Below, piece after piece: positions 5,272-37,637 of a DNA stretch of 64,000 nucleotides. The stretch is from Bryobacterales bacterium (GTDB lineage: Bacteria; Acidobacteriota; Terriglobia; Bryobacterales; Bryobacteraceae): the NCBI GenBank assembly GCA_026129915.1, contig JAHCHD010000002.1:5713-69712 (forward strand), in the 5' to 3' direction. The number at the start of each line of letters is the position of its first letter. Within the stretch, counting starts at the first letter, position 1. A model generated the notes under the pieces. That model ran no database searches and had not been told where the DNA came from. It saw only the letters and a list, made by a program, of their open reading frames with translations. Position numbers and translations under genes: made by a program.

Positions 5272-6711
5272 CTACTGCCGGTAGGTAAGCGGCAGTGCGC
5301 TGGAGCCCATTAGATACTTGTCCACACCGTGTGCCGCGTTGCGCCCTTCGGCAATCGCCCACACTACCAGAGACTGGCCACGGCGCACGTCACCAGCGGC
5401 GAACACTCCCGGGACGCTGGTCATGTAGTCGTCGTTGGCTTTTGCGTTGCCGCGCCTGTCAAGCTCATAGCCGAGTTGCTCCGCGATGCCGCCAGGCTTG
5501 GGACCCAGGAAGCCCATGGCCAGCAGGACCAGGTCAGCGGGCAGCACCGTTTCCGACCCCGGCTCCGCTTCAAACTTAGGCGGAAGACCCACCGTCACCG
5601 CGTGCAGCGCCTTTACGTTACCCTGGTCATCGCCCTCAAAATGCGTGGTATTTATGCTCCAAAGACGCTCGCCGCCCTCTTCATGCGAGGTCTCGGTGCG
5701 TAGCCGCAAGGGCCAAAGAGGCCATGGCGTTTGCGGTGCGCGCTCAGCGGGGGGCTTGGGGAATAGCTCAAGCTGGGTGATGCTTTTTGCCCCCTGACGC
5801 CGGGAGGTCCCGAAGCAATCCGCTCCTGTATCCCCTCCACCGATGATGATGACGTGCTTACCCGCGGCGGAGATTTCACCTTCGTTATATCCCGTTTCCT
5901 CACTGGAAACACGGCGATTCTGTTGCGGCAGGAACTCCATGGCGAAGTGGATGCCCTTCAGTTCCCTGCCCGGCACGTGCAGATCGCGTGGTTGCTCCGC
6001 GCCCATCGCCAACACAATGGCATCGAATTCGGCGCGCAGCCAGTCGCCGGTGATCTCCGCTCCCACGCTGACGTTCGTACGGAACTTCACGCCCTCGGCT
6101 TCCATCTGTTCCAGGCGACGATCGATCACCCATTTTTCCAGCTTGAAATCGGGGATGCCATAACGAAGCAACCCGCCCGGCTTCCCGTTCTTCTCAAACA
6201 CCGTCACCAGATGCCCGGCGCGGTTCAGCTGCTGCGCGGCCGCAAGTCCCGCAGGTCCTGATCCGATAACCGCCACCTTCTTGCCAGTGCGGTGAAACGG
6301 TGGTTCCGGTTTGATGAAGCCCTTCTCCCAGGCTTCTTCCACGATGGTGCGTTCCACCACCTTAATGGATACGGGCGGCGATGTAATACCGAGTACGCAT
6401 GCTGTTTCACAAGGAGCTGGGCAGATGCGACCCGTGAACTCCGGGAAGTTGTTCGTGGCATGCAGCATGCGGATCGCCTCGTCCCAACGGTCACGGTAAA
6501 CCAGGTCGTTCCAATCCGGAATGATGTTGTTCACCGGGCAGCCGGTGTGGCAGAAGGGCACGCCGCAATCCATGCATCGCGCAGCCTGCGTCTTCACCAC
6601 GTCCATCGGCAACGGCTGGTACACCTCAAAATAGTCGTGCACCCGCTCATCCACTGGCCGCTTGCCAATCTCCTGGCGATCGTACTCTAGGAAACCGGTA
6701 ACCTTACCCAC
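5272..6711 (-). CDS. gltD: Glutamate synthase (NADPH) small subunit
   Basis: The N-terminus is [10 protein letters not shown]. There are two Cys clusters ([15 protein letters not shown]), FAD/NAD Rossmann motifs [14 protein letters not shown] and [12 protein letters not shown], and a GTG start at 6711. Confidence 0.95.
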
Positions 6712-9700
6712 GAACCACCTCCGTCTTTCCGCCGTTTGCTGGCGCCCCTGCTCTCATCTCTGCTCCGGGTTTCGTGTAGCCCATCACCCGCTGGAACTCG
6801 TGCGGGAAGACCTTCACAAATCGCGGCAACATACGGTTGAAGTGCTCAAGGATCCACTTCGCCTTTGGACTGCCGGTGTAGTCAATATGGTTCTGAATAA
6901 GCTGCCGCAGAATGCGCTGGTCTTCCTGGTCGGAAACCGGCATCAGGTCGACGCTGGCCAGGTTGCACTGGTGGCGTCCGAACTCGCCAACTTCGTCGAG
7001 CACATATGCGATGCCTCCGCTCATGCCCGCGGCGAAGTTGCGGCCGGTGGTTCCCAGCACCACCACTCTGCCATTGGTCATGTACTCGCAGCCGTGGTCG
7101 CCCACGCCTTCCACCACTGCAGTGGCACCGCTGTTGCGCACACAGAATCGTTCCCCGGCTACGCCATTGAAGTAAGCTTCTCCGCTGGTAGCGCCATACA
7201 TCACCGTATTGCCGATGAGGATGTTCTCCTCGGGCAGGAACGAAGACTCGCGCGGCGGGTAGACGATCACTTTGCCGCCTGAGAGCCCCTTGCCCACATA
7301 GTCGTTGGAATCGCCTTCGAGTTCGAGCGTTACGCCGCGCTCAAGGAAGGCACCGAAACTCTGGCCCGCTGAGCCGCGGAACTTGAAGTGAATGGTGTCA
7401 TCCTGCAGCGGATCTTCATGGAATGCCCGCGCCACGCGCCCGCTTAGCATCGCACCCACGGTGCGGTGTACGTTACGGATGTCCAGCTCCGCCCGTACAG
7501 GCTGCCGTGCCTCAAGGGTGGGCGAGGCGATCTGAATAAGTTCGTGATCGAGCGCGGCTTCCAATCCGTGGTCCTGCGGCATGATGCAGCGGGCCGCAAC
7601 GCGCGAGGGCAACTCGGGACGATACAGAATGGACGAGAAATCAAGCTGGCTGGCTTTCCAGTGCTCCACTCCCGCTTGCATTTCCAGACGATCGCTGCGG
7701 CCGATCATCTCGTTCATCGTGCGGAATCCCAGCTTCGCCATGATTTCGCGCAACTCCTCCGCCACAAAGAAGAAGAAGTTGATGACGTTCTCGGGCGCGC
7801 CGGTGAACTTGGCGCGCAGGACGGGGTCCTGCGTGGCAATACCCACCGGGCAGGTGTTCAGATGACACTTGCGCATCATGATGCAGCCCATCGTAATGAG
7901 CGGCGCGGTGCTGAAGCCAAACTCTTCCGCACCCAGCAGCGCGGCGATGGCCACGTCGCGGCCCGTTTGCAGTTTGCCGTCGGTCTGTACGGTGATGCGG
8001 CTGCGCAGGTCGTTCATCAGAAGCACCTGCTGCGTTTCCGCAAGGCCCAGTTCCCAGGGGATGCCCGCGTGCTTGATGGACGTAAGCGGCGAAGCGCCCG
8101 TGCCGCCGTCGTGGCCGCTGATGAGCACCACATCGGCATGCGCCTTGGCTACGCCCGCGGCAACAATCCCCACACCAACCTCCGCCACCAGCTTTACGGA
8201 GATCCGCGCATTCGGGTTAACGTTTTTGAGGTCGAAGATCAGCTGTGCCAGATCCTCAATCGAATAGATATCGTGGTGCGGCGGTGGCGAGATCAGGCCC
8301 ACCCCCGGCACCGAATGGCGCACCTTGGCGATGATGGCATCCACCTTGTGGCCGGGCAACTGGCCACCCTCACCCGGCTTGGCTCCCTGCGCAATCTTAA
8401 TCTGCAGTTCGTCCGCATTCACCAGGTAGTGAGTGGTGACGCCAAAGCGCCCCGACGCCACTTGCTTGATGGAACTGCGCTTGGAATCACCATTGGGCAA
8501 GGTAAGGTAGCGCACCTCATCCTCGCCGCCTTCGCCCGTATTGGAGCGCGCGCCGATACGGTTCATCGCAATTGCCAGCGTCTCGTGCGCTTCCGCACTG
8601 ATTGAGCCGAATGACATTGCCCCCGTGGCAAAACGCTTGACGATATTGGCCGCCGGTTCCACCTGGTCAATCGGAATCGGCGTACCGGATTCCTTGAAGT
8701 GCATCAGCCCGCGAAGCGTGGCCCGGTGCCGTTCCTGGTTGTTCAGGTGCTCCGCGTATTCCTTGTAGCTGGCGTACGAATTGCCACGCACGGCATGCTG
8801 CAGCTTGCTTACGGAGAATGGATTGTAAAGGTGATACTCGCCGCGCACGCGGTACTGATAGGAACCGCCAACGTCAAGCTCAGGTTCGTCCTTTGTTACC
8901 TTGCGGAACGCATAGTCGTGTTTCAACTGCGCTTCGCGGGCAACCACATCTATGCCCACGCCCTCAATGCGGGAAGGGGTGCCAGTGAAGTACTGGTCAA
9001 TGAAATCGCGGCTCAGGCCAATGGCCTCGAATATCTGGGCGCCCCTGTAGCTCTGCAGCGTGGAGACGCCCATCTTCGAGAACACCTTTAGCAGACCCTT
9101 ATTCACGGCCTTCACAAACTTCTTGTGCAGGATGTCGGGCGGAGTATTGCCCAGAAGCCCGCGCGCCGATAGATCGTCCAGTGTCTCAAACGCGAGGAAG
9201 GGGTTCACTGCGCTGGCCCCGTAGCCGATCAGCAACGCAAAGTGCATTACTTCGCGGGGCTCGCCTGATTCCACAATCAGCGCACACTGGGTACGCAACT
9301 CCTCGCGGGTAAGGTGGTTATGCACCGCGCTTAAGGCGAGCAGACAGGGAATCGGCGCATACTCGTCGTCGAGGCCGCGATCAGAGAGAATCAGCATTGA
9401 ATAGCCAGACTTCACGGCCAGGCTGGCTCGCTTGCACAGTGCATCCAGCGCGCGCCGCAGCCCATCGGGCCCGTCTGCCACCCGGAAAAGGGTAGGCAAC
9501 GTGGTGGCCAGGAAGTCGCCTCGTGACACGCGCCGCAGCTTTTCGAGGTGCTTGTTTTCAAGGATTGGGTGGTCGAGTTTTAGAGTCTGTGCGTGCTCCG
9601 GCGTTTCGTCCAGAATGTTCCGCTCCGTGCCGATATAGCTCACCAGCGACATCACCAGCTCTTCGCGAATGGGGTCAATGGCCGGATTGGTGACCTGCGC

Positions 9701-11284
9701 GAAAAGCTGCTTGAAGTAGTGAAAGAGCGGCTGCGGTTTATCTGACAGGCAGGCCAGCGGCGTGTCGGTGCCCATGGATCCAATTGGTTCCTGGCCGTCC
9801 GTGGCCATGGGACCCATGATCACGCGAATGTCCTCATCCGTGTATCCAAAGGCCCGCTGGCGCTGCAACAGCGTCTCATGCGTCGCGGGGAAGCTACGCC
9901 CGCTCTCTGGAAGGTCCTCAAGCCGCAGTTGATTCTTCTCGATCCACTCGCGGTACGGGCGCCGGCTCTTCAGTTGGTCCTTGAGTTCCTCGTCGGGCAC
10001 AATCCGGCCCTGCGCCAGATCCACCAGGAACATGCGTCCCGGTTGCAGCCTCCCCTTGGAGCGGATGTTCTTGGGCTCCACTGGCAGCACGCCGGTTTCC
10101 GATGCCATGATCACAAGGTCGTCATGCGTCACGTAATAGCGCGCCGGGCGCAAACCGTTACGGTCAAGCGTGGCGCCCACCACCGTGCCGTCGGTGAACG
10201 CAACAGCCGCCGGACCATCCCAAGGCTCCATCAGCGACGCATGGAATTCGTAAAATGCCTTGCGGTCGTCGTCCATCGTTTCGTCAGCGTCCCAGGCCTC
10301 CGGGATTAGCATTGCCATCACATGAGGCAGGCTGCGTCCCGTCAGCGTAAGCAGTTCCACCACGTTGTCGAGGCCTGAGGAATCACTGCCCTCAGGCAGC
10401 ACGATGGGAAACAACTTCTTCAGTTCGTCACCAAACAGCGGACTTTCCAGCACACTCTGGCGAGCGTTCATCCACGCCACGTTGCCGCGGATCGTGTTGA
10501 TCTCACCGTTGTGGCAGATGTACCGGAAGGGATGGGCAAGGTCCCACGTCGGAAACGTATTCGTGGAAAAGCGCTGGTGCACCATGCAGAGCGCACTCAC
10601 AAAATCCTTGTCGTTCAAGTCCTGGTAGAACTCGCGGATCTGCGGCGCCAGCAACAGGCCTTTATAGATGATCGTGCGCGTGGAGAACGACGAAATGTAG
10701 AAGAACTTCCGCTCGTTGATGTCGGAGCGGTCGACGCGGTTCTTTGCCACCCGGCGCAGCACGTAGAGCTTCCGCTCAAGCGTCATCTGGTCAACGCCAG
10801 CCGGACCCTTTACGAAGACTTGCGCGATATACGGCTGCGACGAGCGCGCCACTCGCCCAATGGCGTCCGGATTGATGTAACAGGTCCGCCAACCCAGCAG
10901 TTCGAGTCCTTCCTCTTCAATCGCCTTTTCCACCATCGCCTCACAGCGAAGGCGGTCGAAACGATCCACGGGAAGGAAGATCATACCCACGCCATAACTG
11001 CCCGCCGGAGGTAATGAGAATCCCTGCTTCTCGGCTTCCTTCGCAAAAAAGGCGTGTGGTATCTGCGTCAGTACTCCAGCGCCGTCGCCGGTTTCCGGGT
11101 CGCAGCCACAGGCGCCGCGGTGCGTTAGGTTAATCAGGATTTCAACGCCCTTGTCAATGATGGCGTGCGACTTCTCACCCTTCAAATGGGCGACAAATCC
11201 CAGCCCGCAGGCGTCCTTCTCAAACGAAGGCAGATAGAGTCCCTGGGCTTCGGGAAGCCAGGGTGAGGCAGTATGATGGCGCAT
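6704..11284 (-). CDS. gltB: Glutamate synthase large subunit
   Basis: It carries the Ntn-amidotransferase N-terminus (KDACGLGFV), an FMN/3Fe-4S central domain and a C-terminal GXGXG beta-helix. It overlaps the gltD start by 8 nt. I chose ATG 11284 (MRHHTASPW..); the track's TTG 11359 is an alternative start. Confidence 0.93.
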
Positions 11285-11400
11285 AGGTCTTCTGGGAACC
11301 CCCGGGCAGAGCGAGCGAGGATTCCCCTCAGAATACAACTGGACGAAAACATAAGTCAATACGGACTTGCAGTTTTATAAAATAAGTTATACTGATAGCC
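11285..11400. promoter_or_regulatory. Divergent gltB / LysR promoter region with a candidate LysR-type dyad
   Basis: This stretch is markedly AT-rich in a GC-rich genome. The dyad ATAA-N6-TTAT sits at 11377-11390, immediately upstream of the LysR start. Confidence 0.3.
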
Positions 11401-12345
11401 ATGCCGGTCCGCGTAGACTCTGACCATCTCCGACTTTTTCGCGATATTGTCCTTCAGCGCAGCATCAGCAAGGGAGCCTCCCTGAATGGCGTAAGCCAGT
11501 CCGCGGCCAGCCAGCACTTGCAGGAATTGGAACGGCGTCTGGGCGAAACGCTGCTTGACCGGTCCACGCGCCCCTTCCGCGTTACTGACCTCGGCGAGCT
11601 TTACCTGACGCTTTGCCAGGACCTGCTACGCCGCTGCGAAGAGTTCGAAGCCGAACTCGAACGTCGTCGCAATGTGGTAACGGGAACGCTTCGGGTGGCG
11701 GCGATTTACTCCGTGGGACTGTCCACAATGACGGAGGTGGAAACCGCGTTCCGCTCTCGGTTTCCAGGCGCTACGCTGGAAGTCGAGTATTTGCGACCGG
11801 ACAGGGTATACGAGAGCGTCCTCCACGAGGCTTGCGAACTGGGGCTAATCAGCTATCCGGAGAGCAACCGCGACATCAATGTGCTGCCGTGGCTGGACGA
11901 ACAGATGGCCCTGGGGCTAAGTCCGAAACACCCGCTGGCGTCACAGGAAAGCATCACGCCGAGGGACCTGAACGGTGTCTCGTTTATCGCCTTCGACCCT
12001 GACCTGCCCATCCGCCGTCACATTGACCAGTTCCTTGCGGAATGGCGCATCGAAGTGAAGAACTCGATGAGCTTTGACAACATCCAGATGATCAAGGAAG
12101 CTTTGGTGCTGGGGCGAGGCGTCAGCATCCTGCCGCTGCGCATGATGGACGCCGAGATCCAGGAGGGCAAACTGGTATCGGTGCCAATCGAAGCGGACGG
12201 GTTGGTGCGTCCGGTTGGGGTGATTCACTTGCGACGTCGGCCCTTTAGCCCGGTGGCGGAGCAATTCTGCGCAATGTTGCGCGAGGAGTTCGCCACCGAA
12301 GCCAAGCCCGCGCAAGGGCAGGCGTTGGCGGTGGAATTCCATTAG
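11401..12345 (+). CDS. LysR-family transcriptional regulator, divergent from gltBD (GltC-like arrangement)
   Basis: It has an N-terminal wHTH (SISKGASLNGVSQSAASQHLQELE) and a C-terminal substrate-binding domain. The divergent position mirrors Bacillus gltC-gltAB. Confidence 0.9.
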   Translation: MPVRVDSDHLRLFRDIVLQRSISKGASLNGVSQSAASQHLQELERRLGETLLDRSTRPFRVTDLGELYLTLCQDLLRRCEEFEAELERRRNVVTGTLRVAAIYSVGLSTMTEVETAFRSRFPGATLEVEYLRPDRVYESVLHEACELGLISYPESNRDINVLPWLDEQMALGLSPKHPLASQESITPRDLNGVSFIAFDPDLPIRRHIDQFLAEWRIEVKNSMSFDNIQMIKEALVLGRGVSILPLRMMDAEIQEGKLVSVPIEADGLVRPVGVIHLRRRPFSPVAEQFCAMLREEFATEAKPAQGQALAVEFH

Positions 12346-12366
12346 CCGGCGCTCGAGGATGCTCCG

Positions 12367-12870
12367 CTATTTCTTGCGCCAGTAAGAATAGTCAACAGCC
12401 ATGTCGCCCGCCCAAAGCAGGTGGCCGAGACGCTTTGGACGCACATCCCCCGCGTCATAAGCCTGCAAGTCATCCCAGCCCCCAACGTCCACAGCACCCT
12501 CTTTGGCAACGATCAGGACCCGGTAGTCGCATTCCTCGGGCACTGAACCTTCCTGTTCAATCAGTTGGCGGATGGGATTGAGGTCGCTGCCCATAGTGCC
12601 GTCGCCACCATAGGCATAGATGATGTCCATATCCCATCGCCCCACCAGACGGTTCTTCCGGGGATGAAAAATCTCCACGGATACCTTCAGCAGGTCCTGC
12701 GAGACAATCCAGCGCCCGATGCCCTTCTCAAGTGTGGTCCACTGCCGGGTGAGTTTCGCCGGATCCAGGCCACTTTCGCGCACAATCTCCTTGAGCGAGT
12801 ACATCAGCTTGTCCGACAAAAAGGAGGCGCTGTAGGCTTTGGTGTCAATGTAGGTACGTGTGCTGCTCAT
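12367..12870 (-). CDS. 167-aa cytoplasmic protein, third gene of the TRIP13-like operon; candidate bacterial HORMA-domain protein
   Basis: ATG 12870 overlaps the upstream stop (ATGA). Size and operon context match HORMA partners of TRIP13-like ATPases. There is no TM segment, signal peptide or catalytic motif. The HORMA assignment is by context and by eye only. That it is coding is fairly certain; the functional call is not. Confidence 0.45.
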   Translation of the reverse strand: MSSTRTYIDTKAYSASFLSDKLMYSLKEIVRESGLDPAKLTRQWTTLEKGIGRWIVSQDLLKVSVEIFHPRKNRLVGRWDMDIIYAYGGDGTMGSDLNPIRQLIEQEGSVPEECDYRVLIVAKEGAVDVGGWDDLQAYDAGDVRPKRLGHLLWAGDMAVDYSYWRKK

Positions 12871-13358
12871 GGCCGGAAAAACGCTCCCATCTTCAATACT
12901 TTGGCCAGGCCTTTGGGCTTGGCTGGTTCCTGCTTACGGTCGAACTCAGATCCAAACGAAGGCGTCTGGCCAACGCCGCGGAAGATGATGTTTTCCGAGA
13001 GGGAAGCCAGTTCACGGTTCATCCATCGAAGGTCGGATGACTCACAGGGAATGGACATGCGCCACTCGCCTTCTGTGGGGTTTACGACGAGACAACTTTC
13101 ATCGTAGGTCGGATTCATAATCGCCTCCTCCCCATGGAGGCAGTAGATGCGGACCGCCATATTGTCCGTCTGCAGCACCAGGGCATCCTCGCGCATGGCT
13201 TCCGCCGCAATGGCCGCGCACGCCAGCCCGGCCACGCGATTGAACTCGCGACGCGCGTTGCCTGTGGGGTCCGGAGCCAGAAGCACCGCAATGGTGGCCC
13301 AGGTATCTGTTGCTGAGCGTACAGGGGTAGATACAATCCGTCGGACGATGGCATTCAT
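12867..13358 (-). CDS. 163-aa protein of unknown function, middle gene of the TRIP13-like operon
   Basis: ATGA overlaps occur at both ends (13355-13358 and 12867-12870). No motif is recognisable. The C-terminus is a basic G/P/K-rich tail, ..DRKQEPAKPKGLAKVLKMGAFFRP. Confidence 0.6.
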   Translation of the reverse strand: MNAIVRRIVSTPVRSATDTWATIAVLLAPDPTGNARREFNRVAGLACAAIAAEAMREDALVLQTDNMAVRIYCLHGEEAIMNPTYDESCLVVNPTEGEWRMSIPCESSDLRWMNRELASLSENIIFRGVGQTPSFGSEFDRKQEPAKPKGLAKVLKMGAFFRP

Positions 13359-14305
13359 GAGAGCAGCTCCTGAAGAACCTGGGTTGGCATGGCGGCCGTT
13401 TGCAGACCTCCGTTTTGTCGCAGGCGGTGCACCGCAGCCAGCAAATCGCTCGCGCTCAGCGAACCGGGATCAAGCGCAACCTGCTTGCTGGTGGCGCATG
13501 CACTCACCACCACCTTGCGGATTCGCCGGCCATCAAGGCCCTGGCAGAGGTGGCAGGCCTCTGCGAACTCGGGATGATCCATCAAGCCGGCGACGGCTGG
13601 ATAGTGAAGGGCCAGCGCGTTGATGGTATCGGACAGAATGCGCGCGCAGCCCTCGGCGTCCGGCAGTGGCAGCGTCTCCACGATGTCCGCGCGCGAAAGG
13701 AAGGCAGCATCGATGGCCTCAGGGAAATTGCTGGTAGCCAGGAAAAGCAGATTCGGGTAACGCGCCGCCAGGTGATCCACCTGGGCAAGCACAGCATCCG
13801 TAGCCCGGTGTACGTCAATCGGATTCGCTTCCATGCTCATCCGGGACCGGTCCGCGGCCAGGGTCTCCACCTCGTCGAGCAGCACAATCAGTGGGCCGGC
13901 GTCCGCCTGCTCCGCCACCACAGCGCCAAGTAAGTGCTTCACCGCCTGCTGGCTGCGGCCAAGTGCGGCACTGGCTAGGGCATGCGGCTCCACCTCGATA
14001 TATCGGAAGGACTGTTCCGCTTCCACACACTCGGCCACCCGCGAAGCGAGGCCGCGGGCGATGGACGTCTTCCCCGTGCCCGGTGGACCCACCAACACCA
14101 TCACGCCATGTAACGGTACGGTGGCCCGGTCGAGGCGTCCACGCAGCGTGAAGTTGAGAATTGCTTGCGAGAGCAAACGGTCTTTGAGTTCCTGCGGCAG
14201 GAACACCGCCTCCCACAGCGCGCTGAACTCCTCACACGGCAACGCCCGCGAGTCGAGGATGCCCCGGATCTCGCTAACGGGCTTCGTATTTGGCGTGTGC
14301 TCCAA
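13355..14305 (-). CDS. TRIP13/Pch2-like AAA+ ATPase
   Basis: Motifs are Walker A VLVGPPGTGKTS, Walker B LIVLLDEVETL, sensor-1 LFLATSN and the Arg-finger region IDAAFLSRADI. An upstream W..V.L....K..L motif is also present. The order and spacing follow TRIP13/Pch2, from memory of the human and CBASS proteins. The TTG start at 14305 has a GGAGAGGA RBS. Confidence 0.8.
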   Translation of the reverse strand: MEHTPNTKPVSEIRGILDSRALPCEEFSALWEAVFLPQELKDRLLSQAILNFTLRGRLDRATVPLHGVMVLVGPPGTGKTSIARGLASRVAECVEAEQSFRYIEVEPHALASAALGRSQQAVKHLLGAVVAEQADAGPLIVLLDEVETLAADRSRMSMEANPIDVHRATDAVLAQVDHLAARYPNLLFLATSNFPEAIDAAFLSRADIVETLPLPDAEGCARILSDTINALALHYPAVAGLMDHPEFAEACHLCQGLDGRRIRKVVVSACATSKQVALDPGSLSASDLLAAVHRLRQNGGLQTAAMPTQVLQELLS

Positions 14306-14732
14306 GAAATTCCTCTCCGGCAGGATAAACCCACCGTTTGCACATGTAACATTTCGCTGTTGGTCTAATTAGAATTCTAGCCCCCGTTTGCCTGGATTCC
14401 CATACCTTCTGGTAGCCAGATGTCACTTTTCGGTACTGAAACCCGGGTACCAGAGGGACTACCCCCGTGTTTCATTTGATTTCGATTGTGGCTCCCCATC
14501 CATTCTTCAAAGTGCCCCCCCCCAACGGTTCCTTACGATCTTGGAAAACTGCTCACCCGAATCCGCCGCCGTACCATACTACTTCGCCCGTTCCTTCCCT
14601 GGTCCTATTTGTGCCTCGATTTCCGACGAGACGCTCCGGTTTTTTCGTTTGCTCGGTAAACAATAAGCGATACAATGAACGTAGAAAATTATCGAGTCGA
14701 TTCACAAAACTTATGAAGCAAGGTGCATCGCC

Positions 14733-15377
14733 ATGACCTCGTCCGTATCCACCTCACAACCCGACCTTGCCGCACAAAGCCAGCCTGTGGCTCTTGGCCT
14801 TTTGGAATTGCTAGGTGCGGTGCGCATGTTCTCAATCGCGATGGAGCAGTTGGTTGAAACTAAGGTGCAGCGGCAGATCGCGGGCGACCGCCTGAGCCGC
14901 TCTCAATGGAAGCTGCTGGAGATGTTTGCGCTGAGCGATGTGCGGAATGTCACTGACCTTGCCACGTATCAGGGCGTAAGTACTGCGGCGGCGAGCAAGG
15001 CAGCGGACCGCTTGGTGCGGATGGGTCTGCTGACGCGCGAAGAGGATCTCGAAGACCGTCGGCACATCCACCTTCAACTCAGCCCGGAGGGTCAGCGCAT
15101 CACCAAGGATTACCTCAGCGCTCTGCAGGAACGGATCGCCAAGGTTTTCGTAGGCGCGGACGCACTGCTGGCGCCACGTTTGGCAGGAGAAATAGACGAC
15201 TTGACGGCGGCCACTGCCGCTACCCGGGAAGAAATGGAGCAGGTCTGCCTGCAATGCGCCATCAACCGGCACGAGCCCTGCTTGATTCGACAGCGGATGG
15301 GGGCGACTTGCGCCTATGCACTGCATCACCGCGGAGGCAGCCCCCTTACGAAGGAAACTGCCGCGGTCAGCGCCTGA
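14733..15377 (+). CDS. MarR-family transcriptional regulator with a Cys-containing C-terminal extension
   Basis: The wHTH is LSRSQWKLLEMF..VTDLATYQGVSTAAASKAADRLVRMGLLTREEDLEDRRHIHLQLSPEG. The extra tail is CLQCAINRHEPCLIRQRMGATCAY. Confidence 0.85.
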   Translation: MTSSVSTSQPDLAAQSQPVALGLLELLGAVRMFSIAMEQLVETKVQRQIAGDRLSRSQWKLLEMFALSDVRNVTDLATYQGVSTAAASKAADRLVRMGLLTREEDLEDRRHIHLQLSPEGQRITKDYLSALQERIAKVFVGADALLAPRLAGEIDDLTAATAATREEMEQVCLQCAINRHEPCLIRQRMGATCAYALHHRGGSPLTKETAAVSA

Positions 15378-15432: not shown

Positions 15433-17436
15433 CTAGAACGACCCTTCCCGCTCATACGGCTTCTGCAGGTACTTAGCCGCTTCTTCCTGTGCGCCCGCGG
15501 TATTGTCGCGAGTACGGATGGCGGCATTGTACGAGGTTACGGCGCGCTCACGCTGCCCGCTGACGTCGAAGATCTTGCCAAGATTGATGTGCGCCCACAC
15601 TTCCGTCCATGCGGGTTTCAGGTCGCCATTCAGCACCTCGCGGAATTCATTCGCAGCGGCTTGATAGTTGTTCTGAAGGAAGAACACCTCCGCCACCCGG
15701 TAATGCGCCAGGGAGGAACTGCGGTTTACTTCCAGCGCTTTCTGATACTCCTGCAGGGATTCATTGAACTGGCCGATTTCCGCAAACTGCTCACCGCGGC
15801 GAATGGCCACCAGCACCCGAAGGTCGCGGCTGAAGCGCAGTACATTGGTGTCCGGGTCAATGCTGATCTTGGTGGGCTTGCCGAAGGTTTCCACCACAAA
15901 CTCGGTTTCCGGGCCCATCACCTCAACAACCTGCTCCTCTGGATTTCCTTCTGTTTCCACCAGTAGCTTCACCGGCATGCTGAAGGTATCGAGATCCTGC
16001 TTCACCTTGCCCACTACGCGAAAGCCCTGTTGCGTGCGGAGCACTGTATATTCCAGCTTGAACTCGGGCGCGCTGTTTGACTCCAGCCACTGGATGAAGA
16101 ACGGCCCCATATCGCGGTTGGCAAACTCGCTGGCAAGGCGGCTGAAGGCGCCCGTGCCCAGCGGCTTATTGGCAAACTGGTCTACGGAGGCCTTCACAAA
16201 TTCAAAGAAGGTTTCGTCCCCCATTAGGGAGCGTATCATTTCGAGCGCCGCGGCGCCCTTGCTTGCCGTCAGCGCCCAGTACTCGGGCGAATAATCCTCA
16301 AGCCGTGCTGCTTGCAGCGCCGGCGGATAGTCCACAGTAAGAGCGTCGATGTATAGCGATTCGCGGTCTTCGATGGCCGCCGCCCGATTCACGGTTTCCT
16401 CCAGCCATAGAAGCTCCGAGAGGCGAGCAATGCCGTTGAATATCCAAAGATGATTGCGGCTCTCCGGAAACACCATATTGCCCCACCACTGGCGAGACAG
16501 GTGATTGGCCAGTAGCCGGGAGTTCACAGTTTCGCCGAGCGATACGGAGTTCAGAAACAGAATTCCGGGCGCGGCATAAGCCGCCGGAGCTCCGCGCTCC
16601 GTCTCCACCAGGACAAGATTCGAGAGCGGTGGCAGCCCGTAATACTTCTGCAGAAGGCGCATGAGCTTCCCGGTTTCCTGCCCGTAGCCTTGCGCAAGGG
16701 AAGCATGCTCGTCGCGGAAGAAGATGCGGGTCTGGATGCCCTCGGCATTTACCACCGAAGGATCCTGGCGACTGTATGCCACGCTTCCGCCAAAGTTAGG
16801 CCTGCTGCTCTTGAACTCCCGCACCATACCTTTGTCGGAGATAATCTCGGTCACATCCCCGCTGCTCACCACGTTGTACTCGCTTGGCGTGGTAATGCGG
16901 ATCTGCCACTCGTACGGATCAGTGGTGTACCCGCTTACCGGGAACCAGCGCGTGGGGTACAGCAGATAACCAAATTCCTGCTGCATGGAGGCAAAACGGA
17001 TTCCATAGATCGGCGATTCCTCAATACCGGAAAGCCGGCCGCCGTACAGAAACGTAAGATCCTGCTGTTCTCCCTTTCGCATGGGCTTTGCCAGAGTCAC
17101 CGTGACGGTGAATGTTTTCATGTCGCGATCAAAATTGAGGCTTTCTCCCGTGGAATCGGTCACCCGGCTTACCGCCAGCGCATTATTGAGGTCGAAGCGC
17201 ACGGCGGTGGAGTAGTCACTCAGCATGGAAAAGCTCACTTTGGCGGTGGACGTGAGGCTTTGCCCTTGAGGATCGAGTTCAGCGTCGATTTCGTAGCGAA
17301 GGACATCGATATCGGTCCGCGCTGCGCCTTGGGCTAAGGCAGCCCAGGGGGTGAGCAACGCCAGCGCTAAAAGCACAAGACCGGCGAGCCCGGCTGGGCG
17401 GTTAATCCGTTTCCGAGGGCAAATGCTTCGCTGCAT
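15433..17436 (-). CDS. Secreted M1-aminopeptidase homologue with degenerate active site plus C-terminal TPR repeats
   Basis: The layout resembles LTA4H/aminopeptidase-N. The Zn motif reads NHLSRQWWGN instead of HExxHxWxGN, FNGIA replaces NEGFA, and AAYAAPG replaces GxMENPG. The C-terminal TPR region includes AIRRGEQFAEIGQFNESLQEYQKALEV. I chose ATG 17436 (MQRSICPRK.. signal peptide); GTG 17475 is the alternative. Confidence 0.75.
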   Translation of the reverse strand: MQRSICPRKRINRPAGLAGLVLLALALLTPWAALAQGAARTDIDVLRYEIDAELDPQGQSLTSTAKVSFSMLSDYSTAVRFDLNNALAVSRVTDSTGESLNFDRDMKTFTVTVTLAKPMRKGEQQDLTFLYGGRLSGIEESPIYGIRFASMQQEFGYLLYPTRWFPVSGYTTDPYEWQIRITTPSEYNVVSSGDVTEIISDKGMVREFKSSRPNFGGSVAYSRQDPSVVNAEGIQTRIFFRDEHASLAQGYGQETGKLMRLLQKYYGLPPLSNLVLVETERGAPAAYAAPGILFLNSVSLGETVNSRLLANHLSRQWWGNMVFPESRNHLWIFNGIARLSELLWLEETVNRAAAIEDRESLYIDALTVDYPPALQAARLEDYSPEYWALTASKGAAALEMIRSLMGDETFFEFVKASVDQFANKPLGTGAFSRLASEFANRDMGPFFIQWLESNSAPEFKLEYTVLRTQQGFRVVGKVKQDLDTFSMPVKLLVETEGNPEEQVVEVMGPETEFVVETFGKPTKISIDPDTNVLRFSRDLRVLVAIRRGEQFAEIGQFNESLQEYQKALEVNRSSSLAHYRVAEVFFLQNNYQAAANEFREVLNGDLKPAWTEVWAHINLGKIFDVSGQRERAVTSYNAAIRTRDNTAGAQEEAAKYLQKPYEREGSF

Positions 17437-17474
17437 TCTGGATGTCCTTCCATTCACAAAAAACCAAGGGCGCA

Positions 17475-18644
17475 CTATTGCGCGGGAACAAGAGGCTCCA
17501 CTGGCGAGCCAAGGAGAGCGGCGATGGCATCGGCCGCGCGAGCAATGGGGTCCTCGCTGCCAGCAAGGAGTACCCTGACGCGCCTGAGGTCTTCCCTCAT
17601 CCGCAGCATCCGCTCCGGATTGGCCAGAAGTCCATCTGCCGCGGCCGCCAGCGCGGCGCCGGTGGCTGCGTCCTGCATAAACTCAGGCACCACGCGCTCA
17701 CCGGCAATGAGGTTCACCATTGTCAGATGAGGAACCTTCACCAAACGACGCCCGAGTTTCCAGCTCAGGGGCGCCACCCGATAGAACGTCACCATGGGCG
17801 TGCCCGCGAGAGCCGCCTCCACGGTAACCGTGCCGCTGGCCGCCAGCAACAAATCGGCATTGGCCAGCACGTTCCATGTATCCGCTTCAATCACTTGGAT
17901 GGATAAATCGGAAAAGCGTTTCCTCCAAGTGGCCTCATCCGCAAGCGGAAACCCAGTAGCCGGAACCGCTAAGGCGAACTGAGCCGGGCGAAGCTGGCGC
18001 AATTCCCGCACCGCATCGAGGAGCACTGGCAAATGCCGGCGCCACTCTCCTTCGCGGCTGCCTGGCAGGAGACCAATCACGGGATCCCCGCCGGAGAAAC
18101 CGTACCGGGCATGGAACTGCTGCCGGTTACTGGAGGCATGGAACATCCGGGTGAGCGGGTGACCGGCGTACATGGCATGAATGCCGCGCTCCTGAAAGAA
18201 CTGCTCTTCAAAAGGAAAGATGCACACCAGCAGGTCAATGATGTCTCGCATTGTGCGGGCGCGTCCTTGTCGCCATGCCCAAACCTGGGGTGCCACATAG
18301 TACACCACCGGTACACCCATGCGTTTCAACTGGCGAGCGAGGCGAAAATGGAAATCGGGACTGTCCGTGAGAATGGCGATGTCAGGACGCTCAGTACGGG
18401 CAGCGGCGAGGAGTTTCCGGAACTCCCGGTAAATCCTCGGAATGTGAACGATCACCTCCACCAGACCCACCACCGAAAGCGACTCCGCACGAATCACCGG
18501 CCGAACTCCTGCAGCTCGCATCTTCGGCCCGGCGCAGCCGAAGAACGTCGCGCCTGGGTAGCGCTGGCGCAACTCTTCCACCAGACGCGTGGCGTACATC
18601 TCGCCGCTCGCCTCCCCGGCGGAAATCAGGATCCTGGGGCCCAT
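17475..18644 (-). CDS. lpxB: Lipid-A-disaccharide synthase
   Basis: The N-terminus MGPRILISAGEASGEMYATRLVEEL is typical of LpxB, and the length and overall pattern match the GT19 family. Confidence 0.9.
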   Translation of the reverse strand: MGPRILISAGEASGEMYATRLVEELRQRYPGATFFGCAGPKMRAAGVRPVIRAESLSVVGLVEVIVHIPRIYREFRKLLAAARTERPDIAILTDSPDFHFRLARQLKRMGVPVVYYVAPQVWAWRQGRARTMRDIIDLLVCIFPFEEQFFQERGIHAMYAGHPLTRMFHASSNRQQFHARYGFSGGDPVIGLLPGSREGEWRRHLPVLLDAVRELRQLRPAQFALAVPATGFPLADEATWRKRFSDLSIQVIEADTWNVLANADLLLAASGTVTVEAALAGTPMVTFYRVAPLSWKLGRRLVKVPHLTMVNLIAGERVVPEFMQDAATGAALAAAADGLLANPERMLRMREDLRRVRVLLAGSEDPIARAADAIAALLGSPVEPLVPAQ

Positions 18645-27939: not shown

Positions 27940-29634
27940 GTTTTCAGGCGGATTGTCGGCTTCCGCAAGGGTTCGTATTAGGCCGTCTGCGTTTGGGCGC
28001 GCGTGATCGCGAAGTAGCGTTGCAGGTTGTAGGTGAGGACGGGCCAGATGGCTTCCACGGCCACGCGTTTCAGGCCGCGCGACCGCACCCTCGCCCAGTT
28101 CAGCTTCGTCTTGATCCACGCATTGGGGAACTCCGCAATCGGAGCCCGTGTCTTGTAGATCGCCTTGGCTTCGTCGGTTTCCATGCGTGCCAGGAACGCG
28201 TCCACGCGGTCATCTTCCAGCCGGATGCTCACCGCGCGGCCGTGCTTTTCCATCTTGTTGTTGGGCGTGCAGAGCTTCCGCTTTTTGCATGCCTGGCAGT
28301 CTTCGCGGGCGGCTGCGTAAACGTGAATGGCGCCGTTGCCTTCGGCCGCACTGACGCGAATCTCAACCAGCCGTCTGCCCATCGGGCAGATCACTTCGTT
28401 GGTCGTTTCGTCCCACTCAAATTCACTCGGAGCAAACTGCGGATCGATGCCCCTGCCGGGCTTGTTCTCGGTCGTCTCGCCCCAGGAGCCGATGAACGCG
28501 ACGCCCTTATCGGCGGCCTCCATGATCGACTTGCGGTTCGTGTAATCGCCATCGGCAATGATCTCGCCGGGCAGCTTGCCGGTGGTTGCTTCGACGCGTT
28601 CGATGGCGGGCGCCAGGTGCGCTGCGTCGGAGGGTTGCGTGCTCACCGCCACGTCCACAATCAGGCCGTTGGCCGCGTCGGTGACCAGTTGCACGTTGTA
28701 GGCCGGCGCGAGGCCGTGATCGCTGGTCTTCATGAAATGCGCGTCAGGATCGGTGCGTGAAACGCTCGGTTCCTTCTCCTTCTCCCATTTCTTGTTGGCG
28801 GCCAATTCCGCTGCCTCTTCGAGCGCTTCCTTCACCCGTTCGGAACGCTCGCGCGCGGCCCGTTTGCGTGCCGCCTTCTGCCGCGCGTTCAACTCCTGCC
28901 GCGCCTGGTCGGCCTCAATCGCGGCCACGTGCTTGGCAACTTCGTCCTGGTAAGCGCGCAGTTTGGCCGGCTTGCTGAAGGTCTTCTTGTTAACGTGCGC
29001 CCGCACCTTGGTGCCGTCCACCGTCACACGTTCCAGCGTGATGAGATCCTTCATCATCAGCACCGTGAGCACCTGCTGGAAGAGCTCCTTCATGGCCTCG
29101 GCGTGCTCGACCCGGAAGTCGCTCAGCGTGTGGTGATTGACCTTCTGCAACCCGGTCAGCCACTGAAAGCCGGGCTCCCAGTCGCACTGCCGCTCGACCT
29201 CGCGCGCCGAAGAGAGGCCCCGCGCATAGGCGTAAATCCACATACAGATGAGCAGCCGCGGCGACCACGAATCGCGGCCCGCGCCGCCCACCTTCACCTG
29301 GACCTTGCCTTCGAAGCGGCTCAGATCCAGCCCGCCGACGAACTCCCAGATCGCCCGTGCCGGATGCGACTCATCGAGCATGCGCTCCAGATCGACGAGC
29401 ATCCAGGTGGGCTGATTGCGCTCAATGTGACGGAAGCGCAGCGGGGCGTTGGGCGCCGGGCGCGCCTTGCGGCGGGAGGAGGGAGTGGGCACGGAATCGG
29501 GATCGGGAAACACCTCAGCCGCCGCGAAGAGGGGCTCGATATCCGGAATCGGATTCATAGATCCATTATACCACAATAGCCCTAAACTCGATCAAGATTA
29601 CTGTGATTATTTAGCGGAATATTTTCACATCTTC
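27940..29634 (-). mobile_element. IS1182-family insertion sequence (ends approximate)
   Basis: The single transposase ORF fills the element. I could not identify terminal inverted repeats or target duplications by eye, so the boundaries are guesses. Confidence 0.45.
27978..29576 (-). CDS. IS1182-family (IS5-like) DDE transposase
   Basis: 532 aa. It has an InsH-type N-terminal domain, a central charged coiled region, a DDE domain, and Cys pairs (ICPMG.. and CQACKKRKLC) typical of IS1182 transposases. The start is TTG 29576 or ATG 29558. Confidence 0.85.
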   Translation of the reverse strand: MWYNGSMNPIPDIEPLFAAAEVFPDPDSVPTPSSRRKARPAPNAPLRFRHIERNQPTWMLVDLERMLDESHPARAIWEFVGGLDLSRFEGKVQVKVGGAGRDSWSPRLLICMWIYAYARGLSSAREVERQCDWEPGFQWLTGLQKVNHHTLSDFRVEHAEAMKELFQQVLTVLMMKDLITLERVTVDGTKVRAHVNKKTFSKPAKLRAYQDEVAKHVAAIEADQARQELNARQKAARKRAARERSERVKEALEEAAELAANKKWEKEKEPSVSRTDPDAHFMKTSDHGLAPAYNVQLVTDAANGLIVDVAVSTQPSDAAHLAPAIERVEATTGKLPGEIIADGDYTNRKSIMEAADKGVAFIGSWGETTENKPGRGIDPQFAPSEFEWDETTNEVICPMGRRLVEIRVSAAEGNGAIHVYAAAREDCQACKKRKLCTPNNKMEKHGRAVSIRLEDDRVDAFLARMETDEAKAIYKTRAPIAEFPNAWIKTKLNWARVRSRGLKRVAVEAIWPVLTYNLQRYFAITRAQTQTA

Positions 29635-35185: not shown

Positions 35186-37558
35186 TCAGGGATTTCCCGA
35201 TAGGAGTTCTAGTATTCTCACCCGGCGTTTCGATTGCGCAGGCAGCAACTCCCCATAAGTATCGAGCGCCTGCCGCGCCAACCGTGCCGCCAGCGCGGGG
35301 TTCCGCCTGGCCGCGCATTCTGCCTTGTAGAACAACTGATTGCCCTTCCAGGTGCGGGGCAACTTGCCCGCGGTTAGTGCGTCCTCTTCCTGGAAGAGCG
35401 CTTCGGCCTCCTGGCAGGCGCCGCACTTGGCGCAGACCTCGGCGGTATCCGCCACCAGCATCCAGAAACTGGACCCCACCTCCTCGCGGCGGCTACGCGC
35501 CGATGCGAGGGCTTCCCGGGCAATGGGCAAGGCACCTGCGCAGTCTCCGGCATTGGCCGTGCTGCCCGCCAGCATCGTTCTCAGGCGCAGTTCCTCGAAG
35601 GGATTCACAACACCCGGCGCCAGCCGCGCGGCTTCGCGCAAGTCCGCTACCGCATCGGCGCTCCGGTTGGCAGCAGCATGGGCCTGGGAGCGCACCCGCA
35701 GCAGGGCCACCTGGAAATACGCTCCATCGGGATGCGATCGCACCAGCCCCAGGCCTGCGTCGGCTGCCTGCAGCGCGTCCCCGGGTCTTCCAGCACGCGA
35801 CTGCATCAGGCTCAGTTGCAATTGCAGTCCGGCGCGAGCGACGGGTGGGGCCACGCCGAACTCCTCATCGGGCAGCGATGCGGCGTCAGCAATCGCGGCC
35901 AGCAGGAAGCCAATCGCTTCCTCCGGTTTGGCCTCACATCCTTCGCTCGCCGCTGCTCCCGCCACCAGGAAGTCCACCTGCCGCCCTGGGGCAAGTCTCC
36001 CGCCGGATCGTTCCCGCAGACCGTCCCCACCACGCAGCAGGTCCATGGCTTCCTCGCACGCACCTCGCCGGCGCAACAGGTTTGCCAACACCGCCCTCGC
36101 TTTCAGTTGCGCTTCCAGGCTGCTGCCGCGTTCCGCGCGCTCCACCGCCTTGCGGGCCATGGGCTCCGCCAGATCTTCCCTGCCGTGTTCCTGGGTTAGG
36201 AAGGCGAAATCGGACTGTAAGTTTGCGGCCACCGCATCCGGCAGCGACGTGCCGACATCCAAGCGCGCACTGCCGCGCTCCACCATCTCCGCCACCGTCA
36301 TGGCCCGTTTGCCGCTGCCCGGCGTGGCGGAACTGGTGATCATCCAACTCAGGAAGCGCGCAATCTGCTGGCCATGTCTGGCCTCCTGCAGGGCGATGCG
36401 CTGCTGCCACCAGGCATATCCCGCCAGCGCCGACACCGCCACGCAGGCGACGCCCGCCACCGAGATCGCGGCACGATGCCGCGCCGCGAAGCGCCCGGCG
36501 AGGTATCCCAGGGATGCGGGACGCGCCCGCACCGGCCGTTTCTCCAGATGTGCGCGCAGGTCGGCCGCAAACTCCGCCGCGGAGGCATAGCGCTGGCCGG
36601 GGTCGAAACGCAGGCTCTTGGAAACGATGGCATCGAGGTCCGCCTCCCCGGTGCGTACGCGCAGGCGCGCGGTTCCCGCTGCCCGCTCCCCCAAGGCCAC
36701 AATCGAATGCGCATGCCCGAAGGGCCACTCCCCGGTGAGCAGTTCATGCAGCAGAAGCCCCGCACTGTAGATGTCGCAGGCAGTGGAGACCGGTTCACCG
36801 CGCAATTGTTCGGGACTCGCATAGCGCGGCGTGAGTTGCTCCGTGGCCGTGTCATCGTGTTCGTGCAACAGCTTCGCCGTGCCAAAATCCAGAATCCGCA
36901 CACGTCCCGCCCCATCCACCATCACGTTGGACGGCTTCAGGTCAAGGTGCACCACCAGGCTGCGGTGCGCGGCATGCAGGGCATCCAGCAATTCCACCAT
37001 CAGACGGATGGCTGGTTCCCTCCTTGCGGTTTTGGCGCCCCCGCTTTGCTGGCGGAAGTATTCGTCGATGCGCAGGCCATCTACCCAATCCATGGCGAAG
37101 TAGGGGCGCCCCCCCTCCCAGCCTGCTTCCACAAAGCGCGCGATGCCTGGGTGGTCAAGGTTCAGCAGGATCCGCTGTTCGCGCTCAAACCGTTCCAAGT
37201 CCTTGGGCGCGATCAGATGCTCGTGCATCACCTTCAAGGCCACCCGCTGCTGCGTGCCTGCCGTACTCCTGGTCGCCTCGAACACTCGTCCTTTGCCACC
37301 AGCACCTGCCGCGCGAAGAATCTGGAAGGGGCCGATCTGGTCTGGCGCCGCAGGCACTTCCGCCGCCACCTGCCACGCATTGGCTTGCGCCACCGCCTCT
37401 GCTTCCGATGCTTCCAGCAGCTCCAACACCTGGGAACAGAGATCCTCATTGGCTTCCAGGACCGCCAGCCGCTGGCGCCACTCCGTTGGCGGCCACTGAG
37501 ATGCCGTGTCGAATAACTCCTGGATCCGCGACCAGCCGCGTTGGTTTGGCATGTCCAT
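35186..37558 (-). CDS. Ser/Thr protein kinase with TM segment and C-terminal TPR-like domain
   Basis: Hanks motifs are GAGGKGRVFEA, VALKV, HRSLVHLDLKPSNVM, DFG and SPEQ. A TM segment (AISVAGVACVAVSALAGYAWW) is followed by Ala/Leu-rich repeats. I chose ATG 37558; TTG 37570 is the alternative. Confidence 0.9.
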   Translation of the reverse strand: MDMPNQRGWSRIQELFDTASQWPPTEWRQRLAVLEANEDLCSQVLELLEASEAEAVAQANAWQVAAEVPAAPDQIGPFQILRAAGAGGKGRVFEATRSTAGTQQRVALKVMHEHLIAPKDLERFEREQRILLNLDHPGIARFVEAGWEGGRPYFAMDWVDGLRIDEYFRQQSGGAKTARREPAIRLMVELLDALHAAHRSLVVHLDLKPSNVMVDGAGRVRILDFGTAKLLHEHDDTATEQLTPRYASPEQLRGEPVSTACDIYSAGLLLHELLTGEWPFGHAHSIVALGERAAGTARLRVRTGEADLDAIVSKSLRFDPGQRYASAAEFAADLRAHLEKRPVRARPASLGYLAGRFAARHRAAISVAGVACVAVSALAGYAWWQQRIALQEARHGQQIARFLSWMITSSATPGSGKRAMTVAEMVERGSARLDVGTSLPDAVAANLQSDFAFLTQEHGREDLAEPMARKAVERAERGSSLEAQLKARAVLANLLRRRGACEEAMDLLRGGDGLRERSGGRLAPGRQVDFLVAGAAASEGCEAKPEEAIGFLLAAIADAASLPDEEFGVAPPVARAGLQLQLSLMQSRAGRPGDALQAADAGLGLVRSHPDGAYFQVALLRVRSQAHAAANRSADAVADLREAARLAPGVVNPFEELRLRTMLAGSTANAGDCAGALPIAREALASARSRREEVGSSFWMLVADTAEVCAKCGACQEAEALFQEEDALTAGKLPRTWKGNQLFYKAECAARRNPALAARLARQALDTYGELLPAQSKRRVRILELLSGNP

Positions 37559-37637
37559 AGATTGCCTCAATCCATTGTTAGCGACATGCGCGCAATTTCC
37601 GACTCAGCCCCTTCCGCCCACCCGCTACAATTGCATC

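Follow-up and report, generated by a model that had tools for sequence, protein, structure and literature searches.

A Cys4-MarR-linked HORMA-Trip13 cassette of Bryobacterales: the regulator set of two-HORMA type III CBASS without a linked cyclase or effector, possibly serving a new client

The regulators of two-HORMA (2-HORMA) type III CBASS (anti-phage systems that signal through cyclic oligonucleotides) have been described for the CdnD-HORMA2-HORMA3-Trip13-NucC system of Pseudomonas aeruginosa ATCC27853 (Ye et al. 2020, 10.1101/694695). The 1-HORMA form, represented by CdnC-HORMA1-Trip13-NucC of Escherichia coli MS115-1, follows the same logic of a HORMA protein plus Trip13. Eukaryotes have been proposed to have gained the HORMA-Trip13 pair from such operons and then to have repurposed it. 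Here we analyze a 64-kb stretch of a contig from a Bryobacterales bacterium (JAHCHD010000002.1; "the window"), in which genes for a Trip13 ATPase and two HORMA proteins stand beside a divergent gene for a MarR-family regulator with a four-cysteine (Cys4) tail, with no linked cyclase or effector gene. In the literature searched (Tromer 2019; Ye 2019), bacterial HORMA-Trip13 pairs are described only within nucleotide-signalling (CBASS) operons, as an initial annotation of this DNA also had it, and nothing was found there on a form that lacks the cyclase or is linked to MarR. The reading that we favor, with moderate confidence, is that the three genes make up the regulatory half of a type III CBASS of the 2-HORMA kind, that a Bryobacterales (Acidobacteriota) lineage lost the CD-NTase (a nucleotidyltransferase resembling cGAS and DncV) and the effector, and that the remainder came under the lineage-specific Cys4-MarR as a vertically inherited four-gene cassette with a new client.

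The three genes lie on the minus strand and are translationally coupled. The AAA+ ATPase Trip13/Cap6 (13355-14305, 316 aa) starts at a TTG at 14305 and is followed by HORMA3/Cap8 (12867-13358, 163 aa) and HORMA2/Cap7 (12367-12870, 167 aa); both junctions are 4-nt ATGA overlaps. The ribosome-binding site of Trip13, read from the sequence as GGAGAGGA (14311-14318, minus strand), stands 5 nt before the TTG, and the same start is used in the NCBI annotation of an identical protein (P0001, 316 aa, 100% coverage). Coordinates, junctions, start codon and ribosome-binding site all agree with the initial annotation, and each element of the ATPase motif series that it listed (WEAVFLPQELKDRLL, VLVGPPGTGKTS, LIVLLDEVETLAADR, IDVHRATDAVLAQVD, LFLATSN and IDAAFLSRADI) is present in the translation.

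Trip13 consists of a single AAA+ module (Pfam AAA, 7.8e-19). Against the PADLOC TRIP13 model PDLC00915 it scores E=4.6e-129, with 287 of the 302 profile positions covered, but against the model of the 1-HORMA type, PDLC00914, only 3.3e-13. The closest sequences in the PDB are Caenorhabditis elegans PCH-2 (4xgu, 7.7e-27) and human TRIP13 (about 1e-26), and Cdc48/p97 rank behind them at 1e-20 or weaker. In a neighbor-joining tree, Trip13 is nested among the 2-HORMA Trip13s of canonical CBASS, at a distance of 0.59 from them compared with 0.58 among themselves. The motifs GPPGTGKT, LLDEVE, ATSN and SRAD are present and conserved in common with the canonical members, and the Walker A and B, sensor-1, arginine-finger and pore-loop regions are likewise shared and conserved; the protein has 132 shared-conserved positions and only three radical changes. 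We predict that this protein is a hexameric remodeller that re-opens HORMA2.

HORMA3 matches the PADLOC HORMA model PDLC00881 (E=1e-35) and, by sequence, the P. aeruginosa HORMA3 structure 6p8p (E=5e-21). It gives no match of its own in the local copy of Pfam; its orthologues carry a precomputed assignment to PF27322 (Cap8). The C-terminal helix motif ...VLKxGAFFR is kept, and HORMA3 is probably an open-locked scaffold or adaptor HORMA. HORMA2 matches Pfam PF18173 (bacHORMA_2) at 130.4 bits against a cut-off of 27.3 (8e-38, 164 of 166 profile positions), PADLOC PDLC00882 (2.5e-42) and the P. aeruginosa HORMA2 structure 6p8s (6.5e-27), with 6p8r and 6p8u also matched. Its AlphaFold2 (AF2) model (pLDDT 83, pTM 0.80) was built on an alignment of only 5 sequences, and 4 of the 5 models scored lower. 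A Foldseek search with the model returned closed P. aeruginosa HORMA2 at TM 0.85-0.89, then Mad2, Rev7 and HTP-1/2. In the model, residues 1-9 are disordered and a safety-belt β-hairpin spans 146-154/157-165. By sequence and model, HORMA2 is a convertible HORMA, equipped with a tail at its N-terminus and a safety belt at its C-terminus, and would be the closure-motif-binding member of the pair. The initial annotation had called the ATPase TRIP13/Pch2-like and the two small proteins HORMA-sized, and had proposed a structural comparison; the PCH-2/TRIP13 matches with the nested tree position, the 6p8p and 6p8s matches, and the modelled fold of the 167-aa protein bear it out on each count. HORMA2-like stretches were also seen in two other proteins: the 1566-aa protein P0209 has 17 matched stretches and P0218 (678 aa) has two, and tandem or fused bacterial HORMA domains of this kind would be unusual.

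By their PADLOC, Pfam and PDB matches, the three genes encode Cap6/Trip13, Cap8/HORMA3 and Cap7/HORMA2, and on this evidence they are the regulator set of 2-HORMA type III CBASS. The rest of such a system is not found in the window. In the 64 kb nothing scored below E=0.1, whether the queries were cyclases and SAVED effectors taken from related loci (tblastn) or a 46-sequence CD-NTase hidden Markov model (HMM) and a SAVED HMM, and PADLOC, applied to every open reading frame (ORF) of 170 aa or more in the window, detected neither a cyclase nor an effector family. The same is true of 11 cyclase-less related loci, in which HMM searches and gene tables found no cyclase or effector within 10 kb or up to the contig end. 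The initial annotation had noted this absence beside the cassette, and all of these searches agree with it. HORMA and Trip13 accessory genes are present, CD-NTase (SMODS) and effector are absent, and because both of the latter are missing the locus is not CBASS by definition.

The main rival to our reading is that the CBASS is split: the cassette would regulate a CD-NTase and an effector whose genes lie elsewhere in the genome, and the surface of HORMA2 would track a diverged, unlinked cyclase. We regard this as unlikely, though it has real points in its favor. In all other respects the three proteins make a complete set of CBASS regulators, and the sequence examined covers only 10-64 kb around each cassette. 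A dedicated transcription factor is also normal for CBASS, as with CapH/CapP upstream of the canonical loci L003 and L004. The genomic record of the relatives and the tempo of HORMA evolution, described below, argue the other way.

Homologues of the window Trip13 show a gap in identity, with thirteen 90%-identity clusters at 72% or above and the next at 67% or below. In the upper group (loci L001, L002, L013-L022, L104, L106 and L111-L113), carried by Bryobacterales/Solibacteraceae metagenome-assembled genomes (MAGs) or soil contigs, every context that was retrieved has a divergent MarR gene and Trip13-Cap8-HORMA2, without cyclase or effector. Below the gap, L023 (67% Trip13 identity) and L003 and L004 (56-59%) encode Trip13-Cap8-HORMA2-SMODS cyclase-SAVED effector, accompanied by CapH/CapP-like regulators or defence-island neighbors. 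A metagenome survey seeded with HORMA2 yielded 80 loci: a CD-NTase gene directly follows HORMA2 in 71 of 71 informative cases, and in the other 9 the DNA ends within 70 bp of HORMA2. Unlinking would therefore be unprecedented in this sample, which speaks against a split system. The Trip13-HORMA3-HORMA2 order and the translational coupling are the same in the cassette as in these closest canonical relatives (L003, L004, L023 and the 71 metagenome loci), and gene order and homology clearly mark the cassette as a descendant of a canonical type III CBASS of the 2-HORMA kind.

The clade of cyclase-less loci is monophyletic in 100 of 100 bootstraps for each of the three proteins, and in a midpoint-rooted tree it is nested among the canonical Trip13s; on these phylogenies, the cyclase-less cassette has a single origin. 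Among 1.84 billion representatives searched exhaustively with HMMER, the window HORMA2 shares its 50%-identity cluster with no other sequence, and the next full-length match is at 37%. The canonical loci also vary around the SAVED effector gene (L084, 12960-13847; L096, 12946-13650; L098 and L101): in some 2-HORMA loci this gene is followed by a second ORF of CD-NTase-like type, and in two others the SAVED effector gene is on the opposite strand.

The cassette is found in two chromosomal settings. In most loci the order is accC/BCCP, cassette, nagA-like gene; in the window and L020 it is lpxB-peptidase M1, cassette, LysR-gltB. The MarR gene adjoins the cassette in both settings and in every locus examined, and it therefore travels with the three genes. 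The initial annotation correctly gave LysR and gltBD as flanking genes, but its treatment of the MarR gene as a mere flank does not hold: MarR belongs to the conserved unit. We considered a functional link to accC/BCCP or to the nagA-like gene and rejected it, both being missing from the context of the window and L020.

Constraint on the cassette is strong. Wherever a cyclase-less locus has full-length genes its ORFs are unbroken, and such loci represent at least 11 Bryobacterales lineages. In Nei-Gojobori (NG86) comparisons of eight cyclase-less loci, synonymous divergence (dS) is saturated (>1), nonsynonymous divergence (dN) is 0.02-0.39, and omega is ~0.06-0.16 for Trip13, ~0.08-0.27 for Cap8 and ~0.01-0.27 for HORMA2. 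The GC content of the cassette is the same as that of its flanks, synteny around it is kept among relatives, and pairwise identities of its proteins rank-correlate with those of the neighboring accC (Spearman 0.83-0.93; pairs not independent). HORMA2 (mean identity 83%) is as conserved as this biotin carboxylase (80%). Because composition, synteny and identities agree in this way, the cassette reads as a vertically inherited, constrained chromosomal gene set, rather than a mobile defence island or a decaying leftover.

These results bear on two further alternatives. The first is that the genes are non-functional leftovers of a CBASS from which cyclase and effector were deleted. The cassette order does correspond exactly to the 5' part of a canonical operon, and the initial annotation had held that, should the same three genes turn up in canonical CBASS operons of related genomes, this locus would be only a decayed remnant. 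They do turn up there, but this does not make the locus a remnant: the cyclase-less form is a single clade, conserved by strong purifying selection, in which coupled, intact ORFs persist in those diverged lineages at omega of about 0.01-0.3 and all catalytic motifs are retained. We consider the remnant effectively refuted and its residual probability very nearly negligible. Instead, this soil lineage kept the three CBASS regulators long after the loss of cyclase and effector, and they have probably been re-used for another job.

The second is a messenger-free anti-phage module, in which HORMA2 would capture a closure motif in a phage protein and disable that protein directly, sequestering it or having it unfolded by Trip13, with no cyclase involved. 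Its ancestry is a phage-sensing module, and the closure-motif machinery and the ATPase are intact. However, housekeeping-like conservation and vertical inheritance would be unusual for such a system, a sensor that binds phage proteins directly is expected to diversify, and the cassette lies outside any defence island. In addition, a search of IMG/VR with two patterns only, and so of limited sensitivity, found no HORMA2 relative of either the orphan or the canonical type. We give this alternative a slim chance. The same record counts against a split CBASS, since defence systems are usually patchy and mobile, unlike a cassette that is syntenic, host-like in composition and co-diverging with accC.

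Distance methods that used no outgroup, applied to 9 loci of the cyclase-less clade and 29 non-redundant canonical ones, give a ratio of Kimura distances (cyclase-less to canonical over canonical to canonical) of 1.02 for Trip13, 1.56 for Cap8 and 2.01 for HORMA2. The branches at the stem of the cyclase-less clade are 0.09, 0.54 and 0.65, respectively, those of Cap8 and HORMA2 being the longest internal branches in their trees, and radical clade-specific substitutions number 3/307, 5/162 and 12/166. In HORMA2 these substitutions fall mostly at residues about 100-160 and cluster in αC (about 98-107), the belt linker and β8' (146-154, LGxLLWAGD). P. aeruginosa HORMA2 contacts CdnD via β8' and αC (Ye et al., 10.1101/694695). 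These three elements changed on the stem and have been frozen ever since, and as they correspond to the CdnD-contacting region in P. aeruginosa, closed HORMA2 most likely binds and controls a different client protein.

As far as these alignments and distances go, the remodelling of the HORMA proteins is localised, and a burst of change in both of them, coincident with cyclase loss and followed by stasis, is the pattern expected from a change of partner. One burst followed by stasis also differs from the continuing arms-race change that would be expected of a split CBASS. The initial annotation had spoken of a stripped-down or rewired HORMA-TRIP13 switch, and this description fits a clade that is intact, constrained and remodelled in its HORMA proteins.

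The fourth gene of the cassette, encoding the MarR-family regulator (14733-15377, plus strand, 214 aa), is divergent from Trip13 and scores 38.6 bits against Pfam PF01047 (cut-off 24.6). Its C-terminal tail carries an invariant four-cysteine motif, C172-x-Q-C175-x7-C183-L-x8-C193. Foldseek with the AF2 model matched MftR, ST1710, MexR and MepR over about 136-150 residues and found no PDB counterpart for the helical Cys4 tail (172-193). Homologues are rare, only 36 among 5.8 billion proteins, and all those sampled at 45-47% identity or above (two of them at 45-47%) are in the cassette. The nearest paralogues, at 33-36% identity (L107-L110; P0153, P0154), keep the Cys4 motif but have no HORMA genes beside them; they head operons for Fe-S/CCG (Hdr-like) proteins, electron-transfer flavoprotein (ETF) alpha/beta and FAD/Fe-S oxidoreductases in Bryobacterales. 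Because the Cys4 tail is common to the Hdr-like/ETF paralogues, a redox or metal input to MarR is suggested, and the regulators may form a seemingly undescribed Cys4-MarR subfamily that is possibly redox-sensing.

The divergent control region between MarR and Trip13 (14306-14732) measures 427 bp, and the orthologous regions 320-490 bp. Alignment of eight of them shows sequence that is mostly free to vary, except for three conserved islands. The first contains a GTAC-N10-GTAC box (14433-14450), a candidate MarR operator, whose GTAC columns are invariant in 8/8 loci with a spacing of 10-11; the pattern lies inside an imperfect palindrome (I1/I4) and occurs once in the window, against 0.1 expected. 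A candidate -10-like hexamer of the Trip13 operon, TAGAAT (14374-14379, minus strand), is located 69 nt upstream of the TTG, with TAGA[AC]T invariant in 8/8 loci. Its counterpart for MarR, the candidate -10-like hexamer TACAAT (14671-14676, plus strand), is located 56 nt upstream of the ATG in a GTT[CT]ATnGTAnC island. On this basis MarR is likely to be the transcriptional gate of the cassette. In the window genome TAGAAT also lies within a perfect palindrome, TAGAATTCTA (14370-14379), and therefore reads as a -10-like element on both strands; the palindrome is absent from most orthologous loci, L022 alone having it among the other seven. A search of Rfam over 12000-15000 with E up to 1, including the whole control region, matched no family, and around the cassette no terminator or σ70 promoter was convincing beyond pattern matches.

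The strict co-occurrence of MarR with the three genes, and their joint move between two chromosomal contexts, raises a third alternative: that MarR is itself the client. Closed HORMA2, with HORMA3, would alter DNA binding by the Cys4-MarR and Trip13 would reset it, giving a self-contained transcription switch. At the N-terminus, the MarRs of the cassette are extended by about 15-20 disordered residues that have no counterpart in the Hdr/ETF-linked paralogues, which would suit such a role. But neither the N- nor the C-terminal tail is conserved in sequence, and the invariant residues are those of the winged helix-turn-helix (wHTH) and the Cys4 motif, the latter common to paralogues without HORMA genes. 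No conserved closure-motif-like peptide was seen in MarR, and we rejected a closure motif there on the same grounds, the tails being disordered as well as unconserved. MarR also evolves far faster than HORMA2 (39-82% identity compared with 66-97%), and no arrangement is commoner in bacteria than a local regulator that is divergent, which does not call for contact between the proteins. We give this alternative a small chance, slightly above that of the messenger-free module.

Returning to the reading that we favor, the cassette could work as follows. MarR, acting on the GTAC-N10-GTAC box, would set expression of the coupled operon, and its Cys4 tail, by analogy with the Hdr-like/ETF paralogues, would give a redox or metal input. 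HORMA2 would close round a short closure-motif peptide, as P. aeruginosa HORMA2 suggests, and HORMA3, whose interaction motifs are conserved, would bind it as an open-locked scaffold. The Trip13 hexamer, in which the catalytic motifs are intact, would pull on the conserved Ser/Thr-rich N-terminus of HORMA2 and reset the open state. The output would not be cyclic-oligonucleotide synthesis by a linked cyclase; closed HORMA2 would act, via its rebuilt αC/β8' face, on a client outside the cassette. A more specific proposal, which we advance only tentatively, is that the HORMA-Trip13 switch has been freed from cyclic-nucleotide immunity and exapted in Bryobacterales as a MarR-gated regulator of a cellular, non-cyclase client.

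Several points weigh against the favored reading. Neither the cassette nor its variable flanks contain anything that points to a client, and a CD-NTase/effector pair, unlinked and co-evolving with the changed surface of HORMA2, could lie beyond the 10-64 kb searched around the cassettes. All carriers are MAGs or metagenomic contigs. The "cyclase-binding surface" was mapped from a text description of the P. aeruginosa complex and the AF2 secondary structure, not by residue-level superposition; the relative-rate contrast of the HORMA proteins is based on distances from 9 versus 29 loci without an outgroup; and the promoter and operator assignments are pattern-based.

It is instructive to compare the cassette with the known systems. 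All three of its regulator proteins are homologous to those of P. aeruginosa 2-HORMA type III CBASS, and it retains the HORMA2 N-terminal tail and safety belt, the HORMA3 C-terminal helix and the Trip13 motifs. It differs from 2-HORMA CBASS in having no CD-NTase or effector, in the remodelled αC, belt and β8' of HORMA2 with their 2-fold excess distance, and in being vertically inherited in housekeeping surroundings and not in a defence island. The 1-HORMA systems are further removed, with another Trip13 subfamily, a single HORMA and a linked cyclase. A dedicated regulator that is divergent and directly upstream of the HORMA/Trip13 operon is shared with CBASS controlled by CapW, CapH/CapP or CapK/CapS. 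In contrast to these, the cassette regulator is a Cys4-MarR, a wHTH with a Cys4 tail, and has no WYL domain, protease or kinase partner.

As in eukaryotic TRIP13/Pch2 with p31comet-Mad2 (and also Rev7 and the HORMADs), the cassette, known from its genes, would be a Trip13-reset HORMA switch uncoupled from the synthesis of a nucleotide second messenger, and as in p31comet-Mad2 it pairs one convertible HORMA with one that is probably open-locked. Unlike the eukaryotic enzyme, its Trip13 is bacterial and short (about 300 aa), without the eukaryotic N-terminal domain, and the cassette arose from CBASS independently and recently, within a single bacterial order. Each of its proteins belongs to a known family, and there is a substantial chance that the cyclase-less arrangement is an exaptation analogous to the eukaryotic one. 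If so, it would be a bacterial parallel to the proposed origin of the eukaryotic Mad2/p31comet/Rev7/HORMAD-TRIP13 systems by exaptation.

The cassette is a natural case in which a HORMA-Trip13 pair was kept at housekeeping-level conservation after the loss of cyclase and toxic effector, indicating that the switch can have value without a second-messenger output. It offers a living model of client change in this module and, being non-lethal, a means of learning which partners a bacterial HORMA binds. For annotation pipelines it is a warning that HORMA plus Trip13 is not always CBASS.

The wider surroundings of the cassette in the window are housekeeping. On the HORMA2 side lie gltD-like (5272-6711), gltB (6704-11359) and LysR (11401-12345) genes, and beyond MarR lie those for a peptidase M1/TPR protein (15433-17475) and lpxB (17475-18644); an epimerase, RND and ABC transporters and feoB are also present. 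An ORF of 794 aa at 59293-61677 (plus strand) has no Pfam family at E up to 1e-5. A gene for an IS-type DDE transposase (27978-29576, minus strand; DDE_Tnp_1_6, DUF772), at a distance of 13 kb from the cassette, is the only evident sign of a mobile element that was seen in the window. Among window ORFs of at least 170 aa, PADLOC also returned about 20 strong matches to PD-T4-6/mad6 models. We rejected these as a defence system: their source is a single ORF (35186-37570, minus strand) for a 794-aa Ser/Thr protein kinase (Pfam Pkinase, 6.6e-41), and they are gone once it is removed. The matches that are left are to mad2 (5.7e-27), HEAT-ARM_XIII (4.5e-17), PDC-M28B, C3a186 and PrimPol (4e-7). The kinase itself is probably generic and not a defence protein, and makes a false-positive trap for defence finders.

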